A stretch of 64,000 bases of DNA from positions 915 through 64,914 of the forward strand of contig JBHWTK010000026.1 in assembly GCA_043427975.1 (NCBI GenBank). The letters run 5' to 3'. This stretch comes from Chloroflexia bacterium (GTDB lineage Bacteria; Chloroflexota; Chloroflexia; Thermomicrobiales; UBA6265). The notes beneath the pieces are model-generated. The model was given only the letters and a program-made list of their open reading frames with translations. It did no database searches and was not told the DNA's origin. This document shows, one piece after another, positions 2,361 to 57,915 of this stretch. The translations under genes and the position numbers were made by a program. Each line of letters begins with the position of its first letter. Within the stretch, counting starts at the first letter, position 1.

Positions 2361-4142
2361 CTAGTTCCCGCCCTCGATCGGAGCCGGAGTGCTGACAGGT
2401 TCAGGTTCCTCATCCTGCTGCTCGCGGGTGTAATCTTCCAGGGTCCAGGCATCGCCGGCAGGATCCCAAGCATCATTTCCCAAGATTACGACGATATCGT
2501 AACCATAGTATCCACTCCCGATAGCAGATTCACGGGCCGGGTCTCCGAACGTGATCGTGTCCTGCCCAACGCTGATCAACTCGGACACCAGGGCACTGGT
2601 ACCGAGGTTGCCTTCGACATCGAGGATGGTAGAGCGATCGTAGTTGCCTACGTCTTCCGCGGTATCAACGGATATCTGCCAGAACCCGTTGTATTCCAGC
2701 ACGGTGCCGACACGGCCGGCAAGGCCACGGTTATTGGTGCCGTTAATAATGAGGATACGGGCGCCATAATCGGGGTTCATGTATGCCGCCCCAGGTGAAG
2801 ACACGCTGTAGCCGACGAAATCGCTCAACAGATCCTCCATCAGGAGCCAGTCGACACTGAGGTAGTAGATTCCGTTGTCTCCAATATCTTCGTATAGCGC
2901 CGGCATAACCGGTATTTGTGTGATCCGATCGCGCGGAATCTCGAGGCCAACCTGAGCCAGCTTGATTGCATCGGTAATTGAAATGTCGGTGCGAACAGTG
3001 TCGCCGAAATCGGTAATCAGCTTTGGCAACTGCGTAATGATGTCGGGATTCAGGTGCTGATCGCGCAGGGCCAGCAATACCTGTTGCTGCCTGGCAGCGC
3101 GGCTGGCGTCGCCATCCTGGTGACGGGTGCGCGCATAGATCAGCGCTTCCTCGCCATCGAGGTGCTGCCATCCGGCCGGGAAGTAGATGCGCTGGTAATT
3201 GAAGTTTTCCGCCGGGTAGGTGTTGTCCATAATCGGGTAGGGGACATCAACGTAAATGCCGCCCACGGTATCGATCATCTGGACGAAGCCGTTGAAATCG
3301 ATCTGCACGAAGCCATGGATCGGGATACCGAAATTGGCTTCAATGGTACGGATCATGAGTCCCGCACCCCCGCCCTGCACCTTGTTGTAATCCCCGAGCG
3401 CAAAGGCGGCATTGATTTTGTCGATACCGTACCCGGGGATCACCACCTTTACATCGCGCGGGATCGACATGATGCTGGCTGACTTGTTCCTGGGATCGAT
3501 GTTCACAAGCATGATCGTGTCAGTACGGCTCGAACCATCCGACGAGGAAAGATCGGCACCGAGGAGCAGGATCGTGATGCGATCTTCACCGTTCCAGTGG
3601 GAGATACCCTGGTCCGGCGTGCGCTCCACCAGTTCCGGGGTTCCCTCACGGTTGAGCTGGGCCACCAGCGACGATTCGTTGTGCTGGATATTGCCGACCT
3701 GTACATCCCGGTAGGCCCGGAACGATGAGAACAACACGGGTGTGAGGATAATGAGTGCCACCATCGCCAGGATGGACGGCACACCGATGACGGGCCAGAA
3801 CCACTTGCGGCGCGTAAGTCGTTTCCACCGGCTGGAGGTGCCGAGCGTGCGAGATTGCGCAGCCCGCGCCCGCAGGAGATCTTGCGCCAGCTGTGTATTC
3901 GGCAGGGCGGCTGCTACCGCCCGGGGTGCCCGGGATGGTGGTTGTTGCCGGTAACGGGTATCCGGCCCGGCCTGCGGCGATGCCGCCTGGCCTGAGGAGG
4001 CATGGAGGCGTGCATACCGTTCACTCCGCGATCGGGGCCGCTGCTCCTGTTGCGGTGCACGGGGCGGCTGAGGCCGCTGCCTACGCCGGCGCAGGTAGTC
4101 GTTCTGGTGCGGGGGCCGGTTGTAGGGTTCACGGTCGGGCAT
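2361..4142 (-). CDS. LytR-CpsA-Psr (LCP) family cell-envelope phosphotransferase
   Basis: Pro/Arg/Gln-rich cytoplasmic tail, one TM helix, then an LCP core (ILLLGAD...RTDTIMLVNIDP...SIPRD...INAAFALG) and a LytR_C-like C-terminus. Confidence 0.88.
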   Translation of the reverse strand: MPDREPYNRPPHQNDYLRRRRQRPQPPRAPQQEQRPRSRSERYARLHASSGQAASPQAGPDTRYRQQPPSRAPRAVAAALPNTQLAQDLLRARAAQSRTLGTSSRWKRLTRRKWFWPVIGVPSILAMVALIILTPVLFSSFRAYRDVQVGNIQHNESSLVAQLNREGTPELVERTPDQGISHWNGEDRITILLLGADLSSSDGSSRTDTIMLVNIDPRNKSASIMSIPRDVKVVIPGYGIDKINAAFALGDYNKVQGGGAGLMIRTIEANFGIPIHGFVQIDFNGFVQMIDTVGGIYVDVPYPIMDNTYPAENFNYQRIYFPAGWQHLDGEEALIYARTRHQDGDASRAARQQQVLLALRDQHLNPDIITQLPKLITDFGDTVRTDISITDAIKLAQVGLEIPRDRITQIPVMPALYEDIGDNGIYYLSVDWLLMEDLLSDFVGYSVSSPGAAYMNPDYGARILIINGTNNRGLAGRVGTVLEYNGFWQISVDTAEDVGNYDRSTILDVEGNLGTSALVSELISVGQDTITFGDPARESAIGSGYYGYDIVVILGNDAWDPAGDAWTLEDYTREQQDEEPEPVSTPAPIEGGN

Positions 4143-4272
4143 GGAAGGCAGGGCAGGGGATAGGCCGAACGGACGTTTGCACGCAGTCTACCATTATGAG
4201 GCTCGCGGTCGCGGCGCAGCGCCCGGATCGAGAGGGAGCCGAGTGGCATGGACGGTCGGCTGCTGGCCGCGA

Positions 4273-25008: not shown

Positions 25009-26597
25009 CGTTCTGTAAACTCCCTGAAATAGACAGAATCCCCTGGTGAGAGCTGCCCGAGGCGATCCCAATTTTGGGAAACAACGGTGGCTATTTTGGT
25101 GTACCCGCCAATTGTGGCGTGCCCCGGTAGCATCACGATCGCCTGCCCCTCTCCGGTGACCTGGATGGAACCCGTCGCAATCCCTTCACTGAGGATGTCA
25201 GCACCATCCTCCGGGGCCAGAGAGGGCCCCAGCAGCCGCAAGCCAACCCGATTGGCATCCTGGCTGACGGTGAACCGTTCCGTGAGCAGTCGCTGCCAGG
25301 CGGCATCGCCAAAGCGGTTCCGCTGAACCCCGGGCAGGATTCGGAACGGCGTATCGAGGGCGAGGGACGATGATCCTGTATCCATTCCGGGCGCGAAGGG
25401 TGCAGGCTGGATATGCTGCTGCCCAACCGGCAGGCGGTCGCCCCGCATCAAGGCGCGACCCTGCCAGCCGCCGATACCCGCCAGCAGGCTGGTACTGGCA
25501 CTCCCCATGACCAGTGGCACATCGAACCCTCCCCGCACTGCGAGGTAGGCGTAGGCACCCACCGACGAGGGAGAGCGATGGAAAGTGAGTGCATCACCAG
25601 GCATGGTTTCGAACAGGCGATTCACCGGAAGCGGCCGTTCGTTCAGCCGGGCCCCAAGGTCTGCACCACTTAGTACCAGTTGTAACCGGCGATGGAACCG
25701 CAGCGCTGGCCCCTGATGGGCAATCTCCAGCGCTGCTGTCGCATCCGGGTTCCCTACCAGCCGGTTTGCACGCACCAGGCTGGCGCGGTCCATGGCACCG
25801 TCAGTGGCAAATCCGTATCGCGCCATGCCATAGCGCCCGAGGTCCTGCAAGGTGGCCTGGAACCCCGACGCGAGCACCTCGATCTGGCCATCCCCACAGG
25901 GTATCCCTGGAGCCGATTCAAGGTGTGAAAAATCGGCATGCGGAACCGGCTGGAAGCGAACCCGGTCACCCAGCTGCAACCGCACTGGTGGATCGGCCGA
26001 CGGGTCGAACAGGAGATCCGGCGAGCGGCCAATCAGGTTCCAGCCACCGGCCGAGGGAAGCGCGTAGACGCCCGTTTGTGCCCCGCCAATCCCTACGCTC
26101 CCGGCTGGAACAGCCAGGCGAGGACTTGCGCGGCGGGGTGTAAAGAGGGCTGGAGGCAATCCGATGAGATACGTAAATCCCGGCACGAATCCCACGGCGC
26201 CAACAGTGTACGTACTACTGGCGTGAAGTGTTATCACATCCTCAACGTTTATCCCGGAATGTTCCGATACGTTCGTTAAGTCTTCCCCGTATTCATCCCC
26301 ATAAACGACACTAATAGTGACGATGCTATCACCTGCCCGAACCGGTTTCTCGAACGTATGTTCCCATGCCATCCGGAGCAGAATGACAATTTCGTCCGTA
26401 CACTTTACGTTTTCATCATATACCGCCAGAATGGAGCCATATGAGGGGATGATTTCCCGGATCCCGGACTGGTTTCGGGCGTCCAAATAGCGCACTGTGG
26501 CAGCGATACGCGAGGTTGTGATTTCGCTCATGGTATCGGACACGGCAAACAACAGTACGCCGGGGATAATGTCGAAACTGTGGGGAAAATCGGTCAT
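25005..26597 (-). CDS. 5-oxoprolinase subunits PxpB and PxpC fused (KipI/KipA, allophanate-hydrolase-subunit-like)
   Basis: 530-aa single ORF. The N-terminal half is KipI/PxpB-like and the C-terminal half KipA/PxpC-like (cyclophilin-like folds). 4-nt overlap with pxpA. Confidence 0.85.
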   Translation of the reverse strand: MTDFPHSFDIIPGVLLFAVSDTMSEITTSRIAATVRYLDARNQSGIREIIPSYGSILAVYDENVKCTDEIVILLRMAWEHTFEKPVRAGDSIVTISVVYGDEYGEDLTNVSEHSGINVEDVITLHASSTYTVGAVGFVPGFTYLIGLPPALFTPRRASPRLAVPAGSVGIGGAQTGVYALPSAGGWNLIGRSPDLLFDPSADPPVRLQLGDRVRFQPVPHADFSHLESAPGIPCGDGQIEVLASGFQATLQDLGRYGMARYGFATDGAMDRASLVRANRLVGNPDATAALEIAHQGPALRFHRRLQLVLSGADLGARLNERPLPVNRLFETMPGDALTFHRSPSSVGAYAYLAVRGGFDVPLVMGSASTSLLAGIGGWQGRALMRGDRLPVGQQHIQPAPFAPGMDTGSSSLALDTPFRILPGVQRNRFGDAAWQRLLTERFTVSQDANRVGLRLLGPSLAPEDGADILSEGIATGSIQVTGEGQAIVMLPGHATIGGYTKIATVVSQNWDRLGQLSPGDSVYFREFTER

Positions 26598-39291: not shown

Positions 39292-40302
39292 ATGATTAAG
39301 TACCTGGGATCCAAGCGCAAGCTGGTGCCGCATATCCTGGAGCGGATTCAGGGGTTGCCGGTGCAGCGTGTATGCGACCTGTTCACCGGTACCACCCGGG
39401 TGGCCCAGGCTTGCAAGCGGGCCGGAATGTATGTGGTGGCAAACGACCTCGCCAGCTACAGCCATGTGTTTGCGACCGCCTATATCGCGGCGGATGCCAC
39501 CCGGCTGGACATGGACCGGCTGCAGGGCTGGATTAATCACCTGAACGCGCTGCCGCCCGCGCCGGGGTACATCACCCGCACGTTTTGCGAGGATGCGCGC
39601 TATTTCCAACCAAAGAACGGTGCCCGTATCGATGCCATGCGGGCCGGAATCGATGCGTTGCCAGCCTCGGAGCACGAACGCGCGGTGCTGCTGGCCGCGC
39701 TGCTGCTGGCGGCCGACCGGGTGGATTCCACCACGGGGTTGCAGATGGCCTACCTGAAACAGTGGTCGCCGCGATCCCACAACGATATCGAACTGCGCTT
39801 GCCGCACCTGCTGGACGGTCCCGGAGAGGCGCACCAGCAGGATGCCCTGATGTTCGCCCGGGCTGGTGGCACGCGGGATGTGGACCTGACCTACATCGAT
39901 CCGCCCTACAACCAGCACAGCTACGCTGGTAACTACCACGTGTGGGAAACCCTGGTGCGCAACGACGCCCCGGAGGCATACGGAGTCGCGCGCAAGCGCC
40001 TGGATGTGCGCGGTCAGCGCAATCCGTGGAACAGCAAACCGCGGTTCCGCGAGACCCTGGGCAATACACTGGCCGCGATTGAGAGCCGCTACATGCTGGT
40101 GAGTTTCAGTAATGAGGGGTTTCTCTCCAGTACCGACCTGGAAGCGCTGTTACAGGAATTCGGCCGCGTCGAGCGCACGGATATCGATTTCCGGCGCTAC
40201 ATCGGCGCCCAGATCGGCGTGCACAATCCCGCCGGGGAGAAGGTTGGAACGGTGTCGCACACGAAGAACGTGGAGCACCTGTTCCTCGTGGACCGGGGGT
40301 AG
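39292..40302 (+). CDS. N6-adenine DNA methyltransferase (D12/Dam-like class)
   Basis: MIKYLGSKRKL N-terminus, SAM motif DLFTGTTRV, catalytic YIDPPYN. No restriction endonuclease recognisable next to it. Confidence 0.87.
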   Translation: MIKYLGSKRKLVPHILERIQGLPVQRVCDLFTGTTRVAQACKRAGMYVVANDLASYSHVFATAYIAADATRLDMDRLQGWINHLNALPPAPGYITRTFCEDARYFQPKNGARIDAMRAGIDALPASEHERAVLLAALLLAADRVDSTTGLQMAYLKQWSPRSHNDIELRLPHLLDGPGEAHQQDALMFARAGGTRDVDLTYIDPPYNQHSYAGNYHVWETLVRNDAPEAYGVARKRLDVRGQRNPWNSKPRFRETLGNTLAAIESRYMLVSFSNEGFLSSTDLEALLQEFGRVERTDIDFRRYIGAQIGVHNPAGEKVGTVSHTKNVEHLFLVDRG

Positions 40303-40317
40303 GTTTCACAGGGGAAT

Positions 40318-40435
40318 GTAGGCCCGTCCTTCGCACCCTGAGCACAGCGAAGGGAAGAATGGGGCGGGCCCGGCAGGCATGGCCACCCGGTTCGATGGAC
40401 CCGCCCCATGGCCGTTCCGGCCAGGTCGGGTCTAC
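40318..40435. repeat. REPIN-like doublet, copy 1
   Basis: Forward REP GTAGGCCCGTCCTTCGCACCCTGAGCACAGCGAAGGGAAGAATGGGGCGGGC, plus inverted REP GGACCCGCCCCATGGCCGTTCCGGCCAGGTCGGGTCTAC. Confidence 0.85.
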
Positions 40436-40459
40436 ATTTGGGATTATTCCACGCGGGAA

Positions 40460-40582
40460 GTAGGCCCGTCCTTCGCACCCTGAGCGCAGCGAAGGGGAGA
40501 ATGGGGCGGGCCCGGAAGGCCGGGCAATCCCTGTGCCAGCCATGGATCCACCCAATGGCCGTTTCGGCCCGGACGGATCTAC
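40460..40582. repeat. REPIN-like doublet, copy 2
   Basis: The forward REP is nearly identical to copy 1. The inverted partner is degenerate (GGATCCACCCAATGGCCGTTTCGGCCCGGACGGATCTAC). Confidence 0.8.
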
Positions 40583-40607
40583 AGTTGGGCGTTATCCCAC
40601 ACGGCAA

Positions 40608-40659
40608 GGAGACCCGTCCTTCGCACCTTGAGCGCAGCGAAGGGGAGAATGGGGCGGGC
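40608..40659. repeat. Solo REP, degenerate head (GGAG instead of GTAG)
   Basis: GGAGACCCGTCCTTCGCACCTTGAGCGCAGCGAAGGGGAGAATGGGGCGGGC, ending 10 nt before the transposase start region. Confidence 0.75.
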
Positions 40660-40668
40660 ACAGGGAGA

Positions 40669-41208
40669 ATGTTGATGCCATTTCCGGATCGCACGTCCAT
40701 ACGCCCCGGCACCACCCGGCGGGTGCGTCTGAAGGATTTCGATTACTCTACCCCGGGCTACTACTTCATCACTATTTGCACGCATAACCGGCATCACTAC
40801 TTCGGATCAATAGCAGGCGAAGTCCTCAGCCTCACTCCCGCCGGAAACATGGTTGCAGATGCAATTCGCGAATCCGAATCGGTGTTTCCATCAACGGCTG
40901 TCGACTCATTTATCGTTATGCCCAACCACATTCACGTATTGTTTGGCCAATCGGTGCGTTTAGAGGATGAGCCGGGAACCACTGACCTGATTGACGTGGT
41001 GCAATGGCTTAAGAGCACAACCCATCAGCGGTTCCGCAAGGGTGTCTTGAAACACCGATGGACTCCATACGACCGGTTGGTTTGGCAAGAGGGGTATCAC
41101 GATCACATCGTTCGGAATGAACGTGAGTTGGATGCGCTTCGTGCGTATGTGATGAAAAACGTTGCCACATGGGAGAAGGACCGGTTCTACGACGGGATTG
41201 TGGGTTGA
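40669..41208 (+). CDS. REP-associated tyrosine transposase (RAYT; IS200/IS605-like Y1 HUH transposase)
   Basis: HUH motif MPNHIHVLF. Catalytic-Tyr region WQEGYHDHIVRNERELDALRAYV. ATG 40669 or 40675 after GGGAGA. The upstream part of track ORF 40408 is just REP sequence. Confidence 0.87.
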   Translation: MLMPFPDRTSIRPGTTRRVRLKDFDYSTPGYYFITICTHNRHHYFGSIAGEVLSLTPAGNMVADAIRESESVFPSTAVDSFIVMPNHIHVLFGQSVRLEDEPGTTDLIDVVQWLKSTTHQRFRKGVLKHRWTPYDRLVWQEGYHDHIVRNERELDALRAYVMKNVATWEKDRFYDGIVG

Positions 41209-44666: not shown

Positions 44667-46109
44667 TCATGTCCCCACCGCAATCCGGGGCCGGGGATCG
44701 AGATCGTCCAGCGCGGCAACGAGGGCAGCACTGAGCACCAGGTCATCATGACCAACATGGGCAGGCACGCCCCATTGCATGGTGTTACCTGGTCCGCGGC
44801 GCACCTCGTACTCCGTGGCAGCCAGCTGGGCATAGAACTCGTTCGTCAGCGCGTCCCCATCATCCGCATAGTCACGGAACCGCCCGGTTTCGATGAGCCC
44901 GATGAAATCCCATCCAAGGCGGCTCTTGCTGGCAGCCGAAAACACAAACGGCACCACGCGAATGCCGGTGCGGCGCAAGCTGGCCTCAAGGAAACTGGCC
45001 AGGCCCGCCCCAATGCCGGTGGAATCCACCACGATCCAGTTCGACCGCCATACATGCCGGGCCAGTTCCACGATATGCGCATGCAGGTCGGCGTGGCGGA
45101 TGCCGGTCCATGCCCGGCGATCGATAACGCGGTACACGGGCCGGGTGTCGGCGCGGCTGCGGGTATCCACCTCCACCACCGTGAGCGCCGTGCTATCGCG
45201 GCGACTGGTGCTGAAACTGTCAATACCGCCGCCGTGTTCTTCCTCGCCGGCAACATCCAGCAGCAGGGCGTAGCGCTTGCCGGGTTCGGCGCGGTACCGG
45301 CGTGGATGGTCGCCGCGCATCATCGCCAGGCGATGCGGCGGGAACAGGCTTTGCTGGCCATCCAGTTCTTCCAGGAAATACTCGGTGCGCACAAATGGAT
45401 GCTGCTCACCCAATTGGGCGATACGGCTCTGCACCCGCATGCCATAGGCGGGAACATCCTGCGCCACACGTTGCCATGGCACCACGAACACCCGTTGTAA
45501 TCCGTCGGCATGCTGCTTTTCGCGCAGGTAGCGCATCTGGCGGGCGAGCAATGTTTCGCGCGTCCAGACCGTGCCGAGGAAGAGAGTGGTTGCGTTGGTG
45601 GATGCCGCCATTGGATCGAACACTGCATCCCACACTGCCGGGCGGATATCCTGCGATTCGTTGGCGATAAGGCCGAGATCGGCAGTGAGGCCGCGCGCAT
45701 TGGCAGTACGGGCTGCCGAAACGAACACCGCCTGCGCGTTCCCGACACTGATGCTGCGGTCGCGCACGCGTACCAGTGGCGCGGTGATGGGGTTGGCCAG
45801 CAGCCGGTCGCACAGGCGGTCACGGCTAATCAGCGCCTGCGGCCGGAGGGTAGGGGCGGCCACCACAATGGTGCCGCCACGGGTTGCGTTACGCAGCAGC
45901 ACCCAGGCAATGATCTGGGCCAGTGTTTCATCCTTGCCGGCCTGGCGGCTGAACACCAGCGCAAATTGTTCGCCACTGCGGGCCAGCAGGTGCCGCGCCA
46001 GGGGACGTGCCGCCTCCAGCTGGTACCCGCGCATGGCGAACTGCGGCAGCCCGACCCGGCTAAAGCTGCCGATATCGCGCAGGGCAGCATGGAGCGGGCT
46101 TACACCCAT
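44667..46109 (-). CDS. Phage terminase large subunit-like protein (ATPase + RNaseH-like nuclease)
   Basis: Walker A-like FSRQAGKDE, Walker B-like LGLIANES, nuclease-domain Asp motifs LLLDVAG, WIVVDSTGIG and HDDLVLS. 480 aa with no frameshifts. Confidence 0.8.
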   Translation of the reverse strand: MGVSPLHAALRDIGSFSRVGLPQFAMRGYQLEAARPLARHLLARSGEQFALVFSRQAGKDETLAQIIAWVLLRNATRGGTIVVAAPTLRPQALISRDRLCDRLLANPITAPLVRVRDRSISVGNAQAVFVSAARTANARGLTADLGLIANESQDIRPAVWDAVFDPMAASTNATTLFLGTVWTRETLLARQMRYLREKQHADGLQRVFVVPWQRVAQDVPAYGMRVQSRIAQLGEQHPFVRTEYFLEELDGQQSLFPPHRLAMMRGDHPRRYRAEPGKRYALLLDVAGEEEHGGGIDSFSTSRRDSTALTVVEVDTRSRADTRPVYRVIDRRAWTGIRHADLHAHIVELARHVWRSNWIVVDSTGIGAGLASFLEASLRRTGIRVVPFVFSAASKSRLGWDFIGLIETGRFRDYADDGDALTNEFYAQLAATEYEVRRGPGNTMQWGVPAHVGHDDLVLSAALVAALDDLDPRPRIAVGT

Positions 46110-46291
46110 TGCAACAGCACATCCAGCAGCACGCTGGTGATTACAAGATAGAAAATGGCGTTGGTGCGGCTGCGCACCTCATCCAGGCTGGCGGCGAGTT
46201 GCTCCACCTTCTCGCGGGTAACCACCTCGTATGTGGAACGTGGTTGGAGATCAATGGCCGGGGCGGTGATGCGGGTGGGAATGGTTACCAT
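46100..46291 (-). CDS. Small tail-anchored membrane protein (63 aa)
   Basis: ATG 46291 has GAGGAGG 8 nt upstream. C-terminal TM helix AIFYLVITSVLLDVLLQWV. 10-nt overlap with the terminase-like gene. Confidence 0.55.
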   Translation of the reverse strand: MVTIPTRITAPAIDLQPRSTYEVVTREKVEQLAASLDEVRSRTNAIFYLVITSVLLDVLLQWV

Positions 46292-46629
46292 GGTGTTGCC
46301 TCCTCGTGTTCGACGTCGGTGAGCAGCTTGCGGATTTTGTCCGCCAGTTCGGGCTCCTGCGCGCTGTCCAGCGCGGCCTGGATACGGGCTGTGGTGGTGG
46401 CCACGCTCACGATGCGGGGAATGTGCTTGCATAGGGTCTCCAGGTCGTCTACCTCGGTCGTTACCCGCATCAGCAGGCGCCGCATCGCATTCCGCTCTGC
46501 GGCGAGGGTTTTTTCAGGTACGGCATCGGGCGTTGGGGAAAAGGGTCTTTCAGGCACGGCATCGGGCTCTGGGGCACAGGGCCTTTCAGGAACGGCATCC
46601 GGCTTTGATGCGTAGGGATGTTGGGGCAT
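46285..46629 (-). CDS. Small acidic protein with 3 x 12-aa N-terminal repeats (114 aa)
   Basis: ATG 46629 has GGAGGA 7 nt upstream. Repeats of PDAVPE(R/K)P-type 12-mers. 7-nt overlap with the next ORF. Confidence 0.55.
   Translation of the reverse strand: MPQHPYASKPDAVPERPCAPEPDAVPERPFSPTPDAVPEKTLAAERNAMRRLLMRVTTEVDDLETLCKHIPRIVSVATTTARIQAALDSAQEPELADKIRKLLTDVEHEEATPW
46513..46620. repeat. 36-bp tandem repeat x3 (within the 114-aa ORF)
   Basis: Units start at 46513, 46549 and 46585 (TTCAGGnACGGCATCGGGC...). The period is a multiple of 3. Confidence 0.8.
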
Positions 46630-46796
46630 GGGAATTCCTCCGGGTGGGATCGGTGTCGCCTACTTCCTATACGCATCGGAGGGGAACCAGCCAGCAGCGG
46701 GTGGCGTTGGATGTAACAGAGACGGTGGATACACTGTCGAAGGATTACCTGGGCGAAGGCTGATTTAATCGCCCATATCTATAGGGAGGACACAGG

Positions 46797-52587: not shown

Positions 52588-54393
52588 GTGAAAATCCTGC
52601 TACGTATTCTCACCTACCTCATGCCATACAAATGGCGGCTGGTGGTGGTGTACCTGGCGCTCTTTATTGGCATGGGTTTCCAGTTGCTCATTCCGATCAT
52701 GCTCCAGCGCGCCATTGACGACGGCATCCTTGACCGTGACCTGGGGTACCTTACCCGCGCCACCCTGCTGATTGTGCTCTTCGCCATCCTGCAGGGCATC
52801 TTCATGTATATCCGTACCTATGGCACCAACGCCCTGGCCGAACAGGTGGGAAACGACCTGCGTAACGAACTGTACGATTCGTTCCAGAGCCAGCCCTTTG
52901 CCTTTTACGACAAGGCCCAAAGCGGCCAGCTGATGAGCCGGGCCACCGAGGATATCAACAACATCCGCGGCATGCTCATGTTCGCGCTGCGTGCCATCGT
53001 GCAAACGATCGGTATCGTGTTCTTCGTCACCATTATCCTGGTCCGGTTCGACTGGCTGCTGGCGCTGGTGGCCCTGAGTACCGTGCCGCTAATGCTGCTG
53101 TGGAGCGCCAGTTTCTCCATGACCATCCGGCCAATGTTCCTGCGTGTGCAGCAACAGTTCGGTGTTATGACCAGCGCATTGCAGGAGAACGTGGCCGGTG
53201 GCCGCGTGGTGCGCTCTTTCGCCCAGGAAAAGGCCGAGAGCGATCGCTTTGAAGAAGAACTGGACGAGCTGTTTGTGCGCAATATGAAGGCGGCCAAACG
53301 CTTCAGCTTCAGTTTCCCGATGACCATTGCCGCCAATGGCCTGTCGATAGCCGGTGTGATCTGGGTGGGCGCCTGGATGGTGATGAACGGGCGTATCTCG
53401 CTCGGCACGCTGGTGGCGTTCGAACGCTATACCTCCATGCTGCAGGATCCCGTGCGCTGGCTCGGGTTTGTGGTGAACCGTATCGCCCGGGCCATTGCCA
53501 GCGGTGAGCGCATCTTTGAGATCCTCGATACCAGGCCATCGATCCGCAATGCGACCGGCGCAACCCCCATGGAACTGCGTGGCGAGGTGGAGTTCCACAA
53601 TGTGAGCTTCCGTTACCAGAAGCGTGGTGCCGAGGCGCTGAGCGACGTCAGCTTTGTCGCCAAACCAGACCAGATCACCGCGCTGGTTGGCCACACCGGA
53701 TCCGGCAAGAGCAGCGTGATCGGCCTGATCCCGCGGTTCTACGATGCCACCAGCGGCTCGGTGACCATTGATGGCCACGATGTGCGCGAGATCGAGCTCG
53801 ATTCGCTGCGGCGGCAGGTAGGGATCGTTATGCAGGACAGCTTCCTGTTCAGCATGACCATTCGCGAGAACATCGCCTATGGCCGGCCGAATGCAACGTT
53901 CGAGCAGGTGCAGGCGGCGGCCGTGGCCGCGCAGGCGCACGATTTCATCCTGAACCAGGAGAATGGCTACGATACCGTCATCGGCGAGCGTGGTGTCACC
54001 CTGAGCGGTGGCCAGAAACAGCGACTCTCCATCGCCCGCGCGCTCCTGATCGATCCCCGCATCCTCATCCTCGATGATGCCACGGCGAGTGTGGACAGCG
54101 AAACCGAACACGATATCCAGCAGGCACTGCGCACGCTCATGGCCGGGCGCACCAGCATCGTGATCGCCCAGCGACTCAGCACCGTGAAGGATGCCGACCA
54201 GATCCTGGTGTTCGAGAACGGCCGTATCACCCAGCGTGGCACCCACGAAAGCCTTGTTGCCGAGGCCGGTGGTTTCTATGCCGAGCTCTGGCAGTTGCAG
54301 CAACAGGATGCCGCCGATTTGGTGATAGATGTAGAACCGGACGATGACGATGCGCCGATTGAAACGGCATCTGTGGCAGCGGAGGGCGAATAA
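52588..54393 (+). CDS. ABC transporter permease/ATP-binding protein (type I exporter half-transporter)
   Basis: GTG start. 6-TM domain, Walker A GHTGSGKSS, signature LSGGQKQR, Walker B ILILDDATS. Confidence 0.93.
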   Translation: MKILLRILTYLMPYKWRLVVVYLALFIGMGFQLLIPIMLQRAIDDGILDRDLGYLTRATLLIVLFAILQGIFMYIRTYGTNALAEQVGNDLRNELYDSFQSQPFAFYDKAQSGQLMSRATEDINNIRGMLMFALRAIVQTIGIVFFVTIILVRFDWLLALVALSTVPLMLLWSASFSMTIRPMFLRVQQQFGVMTSALQENVAGGRVVRSFAQEKAESDRFEEELDELFVRNMKAAKRFSFSFPMTIAANGLSIAGVIWVGAWMVMNGRISLGTLVAFERYTSMLQDPVRWLGFVVNRIARAIASGERIFEILDTRPSIRNATGATPMELRGEVEFHNVSFRYQKRGAEALSDVSFVAKPDQITALVGHTGSGKSSVIGLIPRFYDATSGSVTIDGHDVREIELDSLRRQVGIVMQDSFLFSMTIRENIAYGRPNATFEQVQAAAVAAQAHDFILNQENGYDTVIGERGVTLSGGQKQRLSIARALLIDPRILILDDATASVDSETEHDIQQALRTLMAGRTSIVIAQRLSTVKDADQILVFENGRITQRGTHESLVAEAGGFYAELWQLQQQDAADLVIDVEPDDDDAPIETASVAAEGE

Positions 54394-56174
54394 TGGGCCA
54401 GATTCGTGTGGCACAAGACGATGAACTCCTCGGCAAGGCGTACGATGCCCGCATCGCGCGGCGGCTGGTCGGCTTCCTGCTGCCCTACCGGCGGACCCTG
54501 ATCGCCACCACCGCGCTGGTCATCGTCGGTACGCTGGCCGATCTGCTGCTGCCGTGGCTGTTCGCCCGCGCCATCGATGCGCTGGAACGCGACGAGGGCA
54601 TGCGCGTGATTAACATCATCGGTGCCACATTTGTGGTAACGGTGATTATCCGCTTCCTCAGTAACTGGGGGCAGTTCTATACCGCCCAATGGCTCGGTAA
54701 CCGGGTGGTGTTCGATATGCGGAACCGCATGTTCCGCCACCTGCAGAACCTGAGTATCAGCTACATCGACAAGCGCGGCGTCGGCGCGGTGATGACCCGC
54801 ATCCAGAACGACGTCGCCGTGATCCAGGAGCTATTCGGCGATACGGTGATCGGCATTATTAGCAACGTGCTGGTGCTGCTGGGCATTATCGTGATCATGC
54901 TCATCTCCAACTGGAAGATGGCGTTGCTCAGCTTTGCCGTGTTGCCGATCATGATCATCGTGATGCGCGTATGGCAGGGGTACGCCAAGGATGCGTACCG
55001 CAAAACCCGCCGCACCATCGGTATCGTGAACGCCAACCTCGCCGAGAGTATTGCCGGCATGCGCGTGGTGCAGAGCTTTGTGCGCGAGAAGGAGAACCGC
55101 CGCTACTTCCGTATCCTGAACGGCGATAACCTCGATGCCAGCCTGGAAGCCGCGCGCTACAGCAGCATGCTGTTCCCGACGGTGAACTTCCTCAGCGCCA
55201 CCGCCACCGCAGCGATTACCTATGTGGGCGGGCGGATGATCTTTGGCGAATCGCTCTCACTGGGCCAGCTGGTGCTGTTTATCGCCATGATCGACCGCTT
55301 CTTTGCCCCTATCCGCGAACTCAGCCAGCAGTACAGCACGCTCCAGAGCGCCATGGCCGCCGGCGAGCGCATCTTCGAGGTGCTGGACGTGGAGCCGGAA
55401 GTCAAGGATGCCCCCAACGCCAGCATCCTGCCGCCGGTGGTGGGCAAGGTGGATTACACGAATGTGCAGTTCGGGTACGGCAACAAGCAGATCCTGCACG
55501 ATATCAACCTGCATGTGAATCCGGGCGAGACGGTAGCGTTCGTGGGCGAGACCGGTGCAGGCAAGAGCAGCATGGTGAACCTGCTGATGCGCTTTGCCGA
55601 TGTGTGGGATGGCAGTATCACGATTGATGACATCGATGTCCGCAGCGTGACGCAGCAGAGTTTGCGCAGCCAGTTGGGGATTGTGCTGCAGGATACGTTC
55701 CTGTTCGGCAGCACCATTCGCGATAACATCGCCTACGCGCGGCCACATGCCACCCTGAAAGAGATCCAGCAGGCAGCGAAGGACGTTGGTGCGCACGAGT
55801 TCATCATGGCCCTGCCCGATGGCTACGATACCGAGGTACAGGAACGCGGCGTGAGCCTGAGCGTGGGGCAGCGGCAGCTGATCTCGTTTGCACGGGCGCT
55901 GTTGGCCGATCCGCGCATCCTGATCCTGGACGAGGCGACCAGCTCTATTGATACGCAAACCGAGAAGATGATCCAGGATGCCCTGAAGCGGCTGCTGGAA
56001 GGGCGCACGAGCTTTGTGATTGCGCACCGCCTGAGCACCATTCGCGAGGCCGACCGCGTGGTGGTGATGGACCAGGGCCGCATCATCGAAATGGGCACCC
56101 ACGAGGAACTCATGGCCGCCCGCGGCGCGTATTACAACCTCACCACCATGCAATCCACCGGCACTGCTGCGTAG
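54393..56174 (+). CDS. ABC transporter permease/ATP-binding protein (heterodimer partner)
   Basis: ATG overlaps the upstream stop (TAATG). Walker A GETGAGKSS, signature LSVGQRQL, Walker B ILILDEATS. Confidence 0.93.
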   Translation: MGQIRVAQDDELLGKAYDARIARRLVGFLLPYRRTLIATTALVIVGTLADLLLPWLFARAIDALERDEGMRVINIIGATFVVTVIIRFLSNWGQFYTAQWLGNRVVFDMRNRMFRHLQNLSISYIDKRGVGAVMTRIQNDVAVIQELFGDTVIGIISNVLVLLGIIVIMLISNWKMALLSFAVLPIMIIVMRVWQGYAKDAYRKTRRTIGIVNANLAESIAGMRVVQSFVREKENRRYFRILNGDNLDASLEAARYSSMLFPTVNFLSATATAAITYVGGRMIFGESLSLGQLVLFIAMIDRFFAPIRELSQQYSTLQSAMAAGERIFEVLDVEPEVKDAPNASILPPVVGKVDYTNVQFGYGNKQILHDINLHVNPGETVAFVGETGAGKSSMVNLLMRFADVWDGSITIDDIDVRSVTQQSLRSQLGIVLQDTFLFGSTIRDNIAYARPHATLKEIQQAAKDVGAHEFIMALPDGYDTEVQERGVSLSVGQRQLISFARALLADPRILILDEATSSIDTQTEKMIQDALKRLLEGRTSFVIAHRLSTIREADRVVVMDQGRIIEMGTHEELMAARGAYYNLTTMQSTGTAA

Positions 56175-56199
56175 CGACATTTACCGAACGCGGGTCGTA

Positions 56200-56222
56200 C
56201 GCCCGGGGTTAATCCCCGGGCG
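56200..56222. repeat. GC hairpin repeat (CGCCCGGGG family), copy 1
   Basis: CGCCCGGGG-TTAAT-CCCCGGGCG, preceded by GTA. A related copy lies at 56458-56483. Confidence 0.6.
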
Positions 56223-56268
56223 CTGCGCAAAAAAAGCGTGTTCGTGCCTGGCCGGATTCGCTTCGACT

Positions 56269-56430
56269 GTAGACCCGTCCTGACCGCGAAGCGGTCATGG
56301 GGCGGGTTTCCCTCCGCAAGACGCGTATTTGGCCACCATCCCGCCTGGTGCCCGCCCGATTCGCCGGGGCTCGCTCCGCTACTCGTGCTTCGCACTCGGC
56401 CGCCTTCGGCGCGGCGAAGGACGGGCCTAC
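56269..56430. repeat. REPIN-like doublet (GTAGACCCGTCC head ... GGACGGGCCTAC tail)
   Basis: Begins with GTAGACCCGTCCTGACCGCGAAGCGGTCATGGGGCGGGT, a nested 8+7-bp hairpin. Ends with the inverted GTAGGCCCGTCCTTCGC-type REP. Confidence 0.8.
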
Positions 56431-56457
56431 ATTTTCACGGCGATCGGAATGATTCGT

Positions 56458-56501
56458 GCGCCCGGGGGATGAACCCCGGGCGCATCCCCAGGAATCCCTA
56501 C
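56458..56501. repeat. REP (reverse orientation), GTAGGGATTCC...GCGCCCGGGG hairpin
   Basis: The reverse complement reads GTAGGGATTCCTGGGGATGCGCCCGGGGTTCATCCCCCGGGCGC. Confidence 0.6.
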
Positions 56502-56556
56502 GCAGGGGCTGCCAAGCAGCGCTTCGCGCGGGGATTCCGGACTGATAGACGCGCAT

Positions 56557-56650
56557 GTAGACCCGTCCTGACCGCGAAGCGGTCATGGGGCGGGTTTCCC
56601 TCAACCAGGCACGCATCCCGCCATCACGCCGGATGGTGCCCGCCCGATTC
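56557..56650. repeat. 94-bp direct repeat of 56269-56362
   Basis: The first 46 nt (56557-56602) are identical to 56269-56314, and the last 16 nt GGTGCCCGCCCGATTC are identical. The middle 32 nt have diverged. Confidence 0.85.
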
Positions 56651-56704
56651 CTCTGCGGCGGCATAGGGCCCGAATACCCTGATTTCGAACCAGAACAACA
56701 ATTC

Positions 56705-56718
56705 CGAACGAATGTTTG
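56705..56718. promoter_or_regulatory. LexA (Cheo/SOS) box, one mismatch
   Basis: CGAACGAATGTTTG versus the consensus CGAAC-N4-GTTCG. Confidence 0.45.
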
Positions 56719-56737
56719 GAATTGTGCCCGTACACCC

Positions 56738-56766
56738 TTGACAACGTGTCACCGGCATGCGAACAT
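56738..56766 (+). promoter_or_regulatory. Promoter overlapped by the perfect LexA box
   Basis: TTGACA (56738-43), 17-nt spacer, GAACAT (56761-66), about 100 nt upstream of ATG 56867. Confidence 0.5.
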
Positions 56767-56773
56767 GTGTTCG
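56760..56773. promoter_or_regulatory. LexA (Cheo/SOS) box, perfect match
   Basis: CGAACATGTGTTCG equals CGAAC-N4-GTTCG and covers the putative -10 element. Confidence 0.6.
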
Positions 56774-56866
56774 TACACCCCGATGGGACTGATCCGGAAC
56801 ATCCCGAACAGGGGCCCTCACCTGACGTATGAACGAGCCGGCGATCCGGCAGAAGGACGTATTGAT

Positions 56867-57106
56867 ATGACAACCCTGCTGCTGAACACCTTCCTGGTGC
56901 TGATCACGATCCTCTTTGCCGCCATGGCGCTCTACCCGCTCTTCCTGGGCGGCCCGGATACCGACCTCCAGGCCGAACCGTTCGGCGAGGATCACGTTAT
57001 CAGCGTGGTGCCGGTAGGCCTGGATTCGCGGCGACCGACCCCGATTGGCCCGGCGCCTGCAGGCGAATCGCGCGATGAGCATCCGGGGCACCAGCCGGCT
57101 GCATAA
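56867..57106 (+). CDS. Small single-pass membrane protein (79 aa)
   Basis: ATG 56867 after GAAGGA. N-terminal TM helix LLLNTFLVLITILFAAMALYPLFL, then an acidic/Pro-rich tail. First ORF downstream of the LexA-box promoter. Confidence 0.45.
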   Translation: MTTLLLNTFLVLITILFAAMALYPLFLGGPDTDLQAEPFGEDHVISVVPVGLDSRRPTPIGPAPAGESRDEHPGHQPAA

Positions 57107-57114
57107 CCAGCACG

Positions 57115-57140
57115 GGCCTCTCCAGTTTGGAGGGGCCTTT
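57115..57140 (+). terminator. Hairpin between the small ORF and mmcQ-like gene (terminator or RBS-sequestering)
   Basis: GGCCTCTCC-AGTTT-GGAGGGGCC followed by TTTGC. The 3' arm contains the GGAGG RBS of the next gene (ATG 57143). Confidence 0.5.
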
Positions 57141-57641: not shown

Positions 57642-57833
57642 ACCTGTATGTGTGCCCCGGGTCCGTTTGAGGCGGACACATAGGTCCGCCACTACAGACC
57701 AGCTCCGGAGCCTACCTGTGTGCGCCCTGATCCTGCACCTGGCGGACACGTAGGTCCGCCACTACGGACCAGCTCCGGAGCCCACCTGTGTGCCTCGAAC
57801 CGGCACCCGGCGGACACATAGGTCCGCCACTAC
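57642..57833. repeat. ~69-bp tandem repeat x2.8, each unit carrying a GTAG-hairpin REP on the minus strand
   Basis: GGCGGACAC(A/G)TAGGTCCGCCACTAC at 57671-95, 57741-65 and 57809-33. The reverse complement is GTAGTGGCGGACCTATGTGTCCGCC. The flanking ACCTGTGTGC also repeats. Confidence 0.85.
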
Positions 57834-57857
57834 GGGTCCACCCAACCTTGCCCCAAA

Positions 57858-57893
57858 TGACACGAGGCGGACCCATCGGTCCGCCTCGTGTCA
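57858..57893 (-). terminator. Terminator of the LLM oxidoreductase gene
   Basis: TGACACGAGGCGGACC-CATC-GGTCCGCCTCGTGTCA, 16-bp perfect stem, followed on the minus strand by TTTGGGG. It shares the GGCGGACC core with the adjacent tandem repeat. Confidence 0.7.
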
Positions 57894-57915
57894 TGTGTTG
57901 CACCGGTTCCGGGTG

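Follow-up and report, generated by a model that had tools for sequence, protein, structure and literature searches.

Within the 64,000-nucleotide stretch of DNA analyzed here (the window), a gene for a 79-aa membrane protein stands behind a promoter that is overlapped by a LexA-type palindrome, and this combination of promoter and palindrome is conserved among orthologous loci. We read the locus, with somewhat more confidence than doubt, as a Thermomicrobiales-specific DNA-damage-inducible unit, in which LexA would repress a small membrane effector that carries a C-terminal degron and most resembles SosA, YneA, and SidA. The regulatory part of this reading, which a first-pass annotation of the same DNA had raised as a possible SOS-induced effector, is strongly supported: the box lies over the promoter in 17 of 18 distinct loci, the gene is under purifying selection, and the gene for an SOS-response-associated peptidase (SRAP) comes next in many lineages. 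LexA-type damage control of the small gene is very likely, and LexA is the presumed binding protein, as judged from the sequence of the box. The gene is restricted to Thermomicrobiales and probably encodes an undescribed damage-induced effector, whose function is put forward as a candidate only. Neither an SOS regulon nor a damage checkpoint of Thermomicrobiales was described in the papers that a literature search brought up.

The promoter-operator module and its conservation

The first-pass annotation described an exact CGAAC-N4-GTTCG match over the -10 element of a promoter made of TTGACA, a 17-nt spacer, and GAACAT, together with a second box carrying one mismatch. The exact match is CGAACATGTGTTCG (O1) and the second box is CGAACGAATGTTTG (O2), both where they had been placed; the promoter elements, of the sigma-70 type, are also as described, and an extended -10 TG can be added to them (Table 1). 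O1 overlaps this extended -10, a position where binding would be expected to repress, at a site that draws no call from a generic promoter scan. The scan missed the TTGACA-N17-GAACAT site because GAACAT agrees with TATAAT at only three of six positions. Upstream, a weak third box (O3) abuts O2, and the pattern [A/C]GAAC-N4-ATTCC directly 5' of O2 is also present in related loci of the short-leader clade (L006, L007, L009, L010, L034, and L048). The LexA box of Firmicutes and Actinobacteria has the sequence GAAC-N4-GTTC, and the purified LexA of Dehalococcoides (Chloroflexota) reportedly binds it. The same sequence has been described as the LexA box of Gram-positive bacteria (PMC3323433).

TABLE 1 Features of the small-gene locus and of elements near it (positions refer to the window unless another locus is named)
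Feature	Position	Strand	Remarks
Trio/phage-like element	44667-46670; L010 3812-5670; L034 7922-9860 and 125-5260; L048 16384-18255	- (window)	
ABC exporter pair	52588-56174; L007 1-3364; L011 1-3424; L016 2-2574; L023 482-2329; L024 1-1860; P0080 contig	+ (window)	Same strand as the small gene in the window
Upstream repeat array	56195-56650		Two ~290-nt composite units
O3, weak third box, AGAACAACAATTCC	56692-56705	+	Core GAAC-N4-ATTC; abuts O2
O2, upstream LexA-type box, CGAACGAATGTTTG	56705-56718	+	One mismatch
Conserved block, TGTGCCCGTACACCC	56723-56737	+	Just 5' of the -35; direct repeat of the 3' part of O1 plus flank
-35 hexamer, TTGACA	56738-56743	+	Invariant in 16 of 16 aligned promoters
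Conserved GTCAC in the spacer	56748-56752	+	Gives TGAC-N5-GTCA together with the -35
Extended -10: TG (56758-56759), one base, GAACAT (56761-56766)	56758-56766	+	TG and GAACAT conserved
O1, perfect LexA-type box, CGAACATGTGTTCG	56760-56773	+	CGAAC-N4-GTTCG; covers the -10 and the likely transcription start
Predicted 5' leader	56773-56866	+	Start placed from the -10 position, near 56773-56775 and the conserved GTACAC
Leader hairpin, GCCGG-CGAT-CCGGC	56837-56850	+	Stem kept, loop varies among relatives; weak covariation
Shine-Dalgarno, GAAGGA	56852-56857	+	Conserved
Gene for 79-aa single-pass membrane protein	56867-57106	+	Predicted helix 2-26; disordered tail with EDHVISVVP; C-terminal Ala-Ala
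GC-rich hairpin (9 pairs), then TTTG only	57115-57137	+	Candidate terminator ahead of yjbR, weak or leaky
YjbR/MmcQ-family gene, 124 aa	57161-57535	+	Pfam PF04237, E = 8e-16; NCBIfam MmcQ/YjbR
Downstream repeat array	57669-57902		Four GGCGGAC-N6-GTCCGCC palindromes (57671-57885), 57-70 nt spacing

By itself, O1 barely exceeds chance and is only suggestive, being weak evidence without conservation. The perfect CGAAC-N4-GTTCG pattern is found once in the 64 kb against 0.07 expected, and 7 of 100 shuffled windows contain at least one such box. The LexA-type box is convincing because O1 is conserved among orthologues, not because of the count in a single window.

Upstream DNA was compared for 18 distinct family members ranging from 100% to ~30% protein identity. 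The pattern TTGACA-N16-[A/C]GAACATG[T/C]GTTCG recurs at identical spacing in 17 of these 18 orthologous loci, and we offer it as a putative LexA operator consensus for Thermomicrobiales. Two or more perfect-core boxes are present in 10 of the 18, the upstream box with its perfect GAAC-N4-GTTC core lying 45 to 57 bp from O1 as measured between centers (most often 55). The distance from the promoter to the start codon varies from ~100 to ~390 nt, and the flanks outside the module cannot be aligned; because flanks and leader length diverge to this extent, the conservation of the module is selective. The promoter of L037 sits farther upstream and has three boxes. The sole exception among the 18 loci is L009, which has lost O1 and shows TAGTAT in place of GAACAT, with one-mismatch boxes retained upstream and near the ribosome-binding site. 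TAGTAT is a better -10 sequence at the very position of GAACAT, and the -10 assignment is therefore supported.

Three conserved promoter elements lie outside the LexA palindromes: CCGTACAC 5' of the -35 (56728-56735), GTCAC in the spacer, and GTACAC 3' of O1 (56773-56778). The consensus ..CCg.aca..c preceding TTGACA holds over 16 loci. Since conservation extends asymmetrically past the palindrome at these three elements, the aligned sequences point to a constraint on the promoter that comes from something besides LexA as well. A second regulator, contacts with RNA polymerase, and the 5' end of the transcript are possibilities for what the elements represent.

The core GAAC-N4-GTTC occurs three times in the window against 0.55 expected. 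The copies at 26352 and 37467, the latter corresponding to the ERLF codons of a LuxR helix-turn-helix, are both intragenic and were treated as chance occurrences rather than operators. The first-pass annotation had further held that no other box exists in the intergenic regions of the window, which is correct for the perfect box, O1 being unique in the 64 kb, and incorrect for boxes with one mismatch. One of these, CGAACGGACGTTTG (4166-4179), falls in the intergenic region between ndk and a divergent LytR_cpsA_psr (cell-envelope) gene on the - strand (2361-4142), whose start it precedes by 24 nt; with 2.45 one-mismatch sites expected per window, it may be a chance site.

Within ~250 kb of related DNA, hardly any perfect-core site lies elsewhere than at the promoter of the small gene. 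Locus L034 also has a perfect AGAACATATGTTCT, placed in the promoter region of a portal/MuF operon of phage-like character; because of this site, the motif is not private to the small gene and looks like the binding site for a regulator with several targets, of kinds that are typical for LexA. A scan of IMG/VR for GAACATGYGTTCGTACA gave eight matches that were rejected, all on unrelated contigs (seven of the eight being phage contigs of low GC content), none of them followed by a small ORF and several lying inside coding sequence. The first 200 kb of the megaplasmid of T. roseum (NC_011961), a replicon with few housekeeping genes according to the genome paper, hold two core sites, both intragenic, and no SOS gene, and the megaplasmid has no close homologue of SRAP or of the small protein. 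No recA, lexA, or uvr gene is found in the window or in the collected loci, and tblastn with LexA and RecA against these gave no match. When PLSDB was searched by tblastn with B. subtilis LexA and E. coli RecA, other taxa dominated and no Thermomicrobium record was among the matches listed.

The small protein family and its genomic setting

Comparison with its relatives shows that the 79-aa ORF is a real gene under purifying selection. Eight relatives of about the same length came out of an exhaustive phmmer search against 1.84 billion representatives, and ~90 clusters, all of 71 to 86 aa, out of a profile search against 5.8 billion clusters; wherever a member is named, it is a hypothetical protein annotated in a Thermomicrobiales MAG. 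The one match obtained from a genome-collection search is likewise a Thermomicrobiales MAG, and GCA_023957015 and GCA_046128665 are examples of Thermomicrobiales genomes that carry the gene. Values of dN/dS lie between 0.20 and 0.47 across 10 pairs, and the ribosome-binding site GAAAGGA/GAAGGA is kept among relatives. The protein has no match in Pfam, NCBIfam, PHROGs, or the PDB.

The earlier description of the product as a single-pass membrane protein was borne out for what is a conserved gene. Residues 9 to 27 are strongly hydrophobic (mean Kyte-Doolittle 2.53) and form the sole segment of this kind, and AlphaFold2, run with 68 sequences, predicts a helix over residues 2 to 26 (pLDDT >90) and an unstructured tail (pLDDT 56 to 69). 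In the family alignment, the N-terminal hydrophobic segment is followed ~15 residues later by EDRV[LI][SH][IV]xP and then by a variable proline-rich tail; a hydrophilic tail of ~50 aa is conserved. All 90 of 90 members end in Ala-Ala, and the residue before this dipeptide is P, D, E, R, or T. Family-wide, the 15 residues after the helix comprise 119 K/R versus 406 D/E and the N-flank is uncharged, a charge distribution from which the predicted membrane topology is ambiguous. For a candidate effector family of ~90 clusters, EDRV[LI][SH][IV]xP and the C-terminal Ala-Ala are two easily mutated features.

A regulatory RNA in the leader was considered and rejected, given no Rfam match, a whole-leader fold no better than that of shuffled sequences (z = 0.27), and weak covariation. 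Members with long leaders (190 to 390 nt; L011 3800-4000, L013 780-950, L018, and L024) have in common a short CCCCGCAG soon after the boxes, and possible small upstream ORFs occur in the same members. Downstream of the small gene, the GC-rich hairpin of the window was not called by a terminator scan, and yjbR is possibly co-transcribed with the small gene. In L009 and L034, a strong terminator is found at the corresponding place and the small gene stands alone.

The genes next to the small gene recur in a few combinations. YjbR is found downstream in the window, L001, L003, L006, and L048-L050, as well as in L010 by reading of the sequence. In L013, L016, L017, L019, L024, L030-L033, and the P0080 contig, the small gene is instead followed on its own strand by SRAP (PF02586). 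Both partners are linked to DNA damage, and their recurrence behind the small gene hints at a small damage operon. In about half of the lineages, the small gene directly adjoins a heterodimeric ABC exporter pair, made up of two ABC_membrane+ABC_tran genes; in L007, L011, L016 with L030-L033 (one lineage), L023, L024, and P0080, the pair is divergent, and the box-containing intergenic region is common to both transcription units.

Elsewhere in the window, a trio of genes for an 80- to 114-aa protein, a ~60-aa protein, and a terminase-large-subunit-like protein (480 aa; Terminase_6C, PHROG terminase) lies beside a class A penicillin-binding protein gene, as it does in other loci (Table 1). The motif CTATACGCATCGG precedes the trio (window 46658-46670; TATAG(A) on the - strand). 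The promoter regions of the trio and of the separate portal/MuF operon in L034 both contain a GAAC-N4-GTTC box; the trio of the window has none. The O2 of the small gene in L034 lies just upstream of a promoter-like motif of the divergent 80-aa/64-aa/terminase operon. The trio may be a domesticated phage-derived element that is under LexA control in some lineages.

Proposed mechanism, known counterparts, and rival explanations

In the mechanism that we propose, a LexA dimer on O1 would occlude the -10 and the start point and thereby block RNA polymerase, and O2 and O3, about five helical turns upstream, would add cooperative repression. DNA damage would trigger RecA-stimulated self-cleavage of LexA and free the promoter. 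The protein would then insert in the membrane, where the tail motif EDRV[LI][SH][IV]xP might contact a membrane partner, and the most likely outcome would be that cell division is paused, as it is by SosA, YneA, ChiZ, and SidA. The role as a division inhibitor is assigned by analogy with these proteins and is tentative, the balance leaning somewhat against it. The invariant Ala-Ala would serve as a degradation signal that clears the protein when LexA repression returns; for this degron, likewise proposed by analogy, we see the chances as evenly divided. A cytoplasmic tail would make ClpXP or FtsH the candidate protease, and a tail on the outside would point to a C-terminal protease of the Ctp/Prc type. 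Read jointly, these elements would describe the first DNA-damage checkpoint effector of Chloroflexota, induced by LexA cleavage, halting division or another envelope process through its tail motif, and ending its own action through an ssrA-like degron, a combination that, taken as a whole, we regard as less likely than not. SOS-induced membrane inhibitors have had many independent origins, and if the joint reading is true, an independent SOS membrane inhibitor with a built-in degron would bear on how such checkpoints assemble and switch off.

SosA of Staphylococcus aureus is an SOS-induced division inhibitor of 77 aa with an N-terminal membrane segment, removed by CtpA via its extreme C terminus (PMC6851548). 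The small protein, with 79 aa, is similar to it in length, in the single N-terminal membrane segment, and in the conservation of both a membrane-proximal stretch and the extreme C terminus. Both are confined to a single lineage, and SosA is under SOS/LexA-type control, as the small gene appears to be from its operator. Sequence similarity between the two is undetectable, the phmmer and profile searches having returned only ~80-aa relatives of which the named ones are all Thermomicrobiales. The tail of SosA is outside, whereas the side of the small protein's tail is ambiguous; this tail is predicted to be disordered and always ends in Ala-Ala. Unlike yneA and sosA, which adjoin lexA, the small gene has lexA beside it in none of the contexts seen.

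YneA of Bacillus subtilis is cleared by proteases via its outer C-terminal part (PMC6051672, PMC13396833). Like the small protein, YneA and ChiZ of Mycobacterium tuberculosis are single-pass membrane proteins under LexA boxes, and they delay division, but both have a LysM domain, whereas the small family has no Pfam or NCBIfam domain at all. The Caulobacter crescentus proteins SidA and DidA are small and induced by damage; they reside in the inner membrane and target late components of the divisome, and SidA is controlled by LexA. They differ from the small family in the alpha-proteobacterial direct-repeat LexA motif, in having no sequence similarity to it, and in the lack of a conserved C-terminal dipeptide. 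TisB and DinQ of Escherichia coli are also small membrane peptides with LexA control and long leaders, but they have <30 aa, are purely hydrophobic, and have an antisense RNA partner, whereas the small family is longer, has a hydrophilic tail, and gives no sign of an antisense RNA. Recognition of ssrA-type degrons (…LAA), and of small apolar C termini by Tsp/Prc/CtpA, depends above all on a terminal Ala-Ala whose carboxylate is free. The AA ending of 90 out of 90 family members is a likeness to such degrons, but Leu is replaced at the preceding position by P, D, E, R, or T, and the tag is genomically encoded. By analogy, the small gene would act in the manner of the small membrane effectors that are under SOS control in other phyla. 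That concept is already established; the family itself belongs neither to YneA/ChiZ, having no LysM domain, nor to SosA, with which it shares no homology.

A different regulator, such as a local or phage-derived repressor, might bind the palindromes and respond to a signal other than DNA damage. Such a regulator would fit the asymmetric conservation past the box (GTACAC, GTCAC, and CCGTACAC), the divergent arrangement of the unit and a phage-like terminase cluster in L010 and L034, the further box at the portal operon, and the fact that the motif was seen at no canonical SOS gene among the loci collected from Thermomicrobiales. The core and the spacing, however, are exactly those of the Gram-positive/Chloroflexi LexA box, with a typical A/T-rich center, and SRAP is the partner gene in many lineages. 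Phage-like operons are moreover classic LexA targets, so the phage-side sites fit LexA equally well, and we consider a regulator other than LexA improbable. The view that the palindrome arose by chance and that the ORF is no real gene would be compatible with the perfect boxes in 7 of 100 window shuffles; this view is refuted by the comparative data, with promoter and box kept in 17 of 18 loci, ~90 homologous clusters, and dN/dS well below 1, and its probability is negligible.

Two other explanations accept the regulation and concern the function of the protein. It is unlikely that the gene encodes an SOS-induced toxin of the TisB/DinQ type, which would lower the membrane potential and lead to dormancy without the division machinery as its target: type I toxins mostly have <60 aa and are almost wholly hydrophobic, and the family members, which have 71 to 86 aa, a conserved motif in a hydrophilic tail, and a C terminus that does not vary, do not, by their sequences, fit them in size or composition. 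A small hydrophobic protein under LexA-type control, long leaders of up to ~390 nt in many lineages, and a conserved hairpin adjoining the Shine-Dalgarno sequence are what such a toxin would share with the locus, but the leader folds no better than its shuffles, Rfam has no match, and no antisense promoter or sRNA was found. The protein could also be an accessory or regulatory subunit of the neighboring heterodimeric ABC exporter, helping for instance to export genotoxins after damage, or it could tether SRAP or YjbR to the membrane. The ABC pair does adjoin the small gene in the window, L007, L011, L016/L030-L033, L023, L024, and the P0080 contig, but the pair of the window lies upstream on the same strand, has a stop of its own, and is separated from the small gene by 700 nt of repeats, and in L009, L010, L034, and L048 it is not the immediate neighbor. 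The downstream partner also varies (SRAP, YjbR, or none), so no fixed protein partner is encoded nearby, and a subunit or tether role is unlikely. The damage-inducible membrane effector under LexA remains the reading that we prefer.

Flanking repeats

The first-pass annotation had noted that the locus is sandwiched between two repeat arrays, and the two arrays are indeed present (Table 1). The downstream palindrome and the 43-nt core of the upstream unit were searched for in the window and occur nowhere else in it. Relatives lack the arrays at the corresponding positions, and the arrays are therefore strain-specific insertions; they are irrelevant to the promoter-gene module. An IS200-like Y1 transposase gene (40408-41208), which is possibly REP-associated, adjoins a Dam-type methyltransferase gene (39292-40302) in the window.
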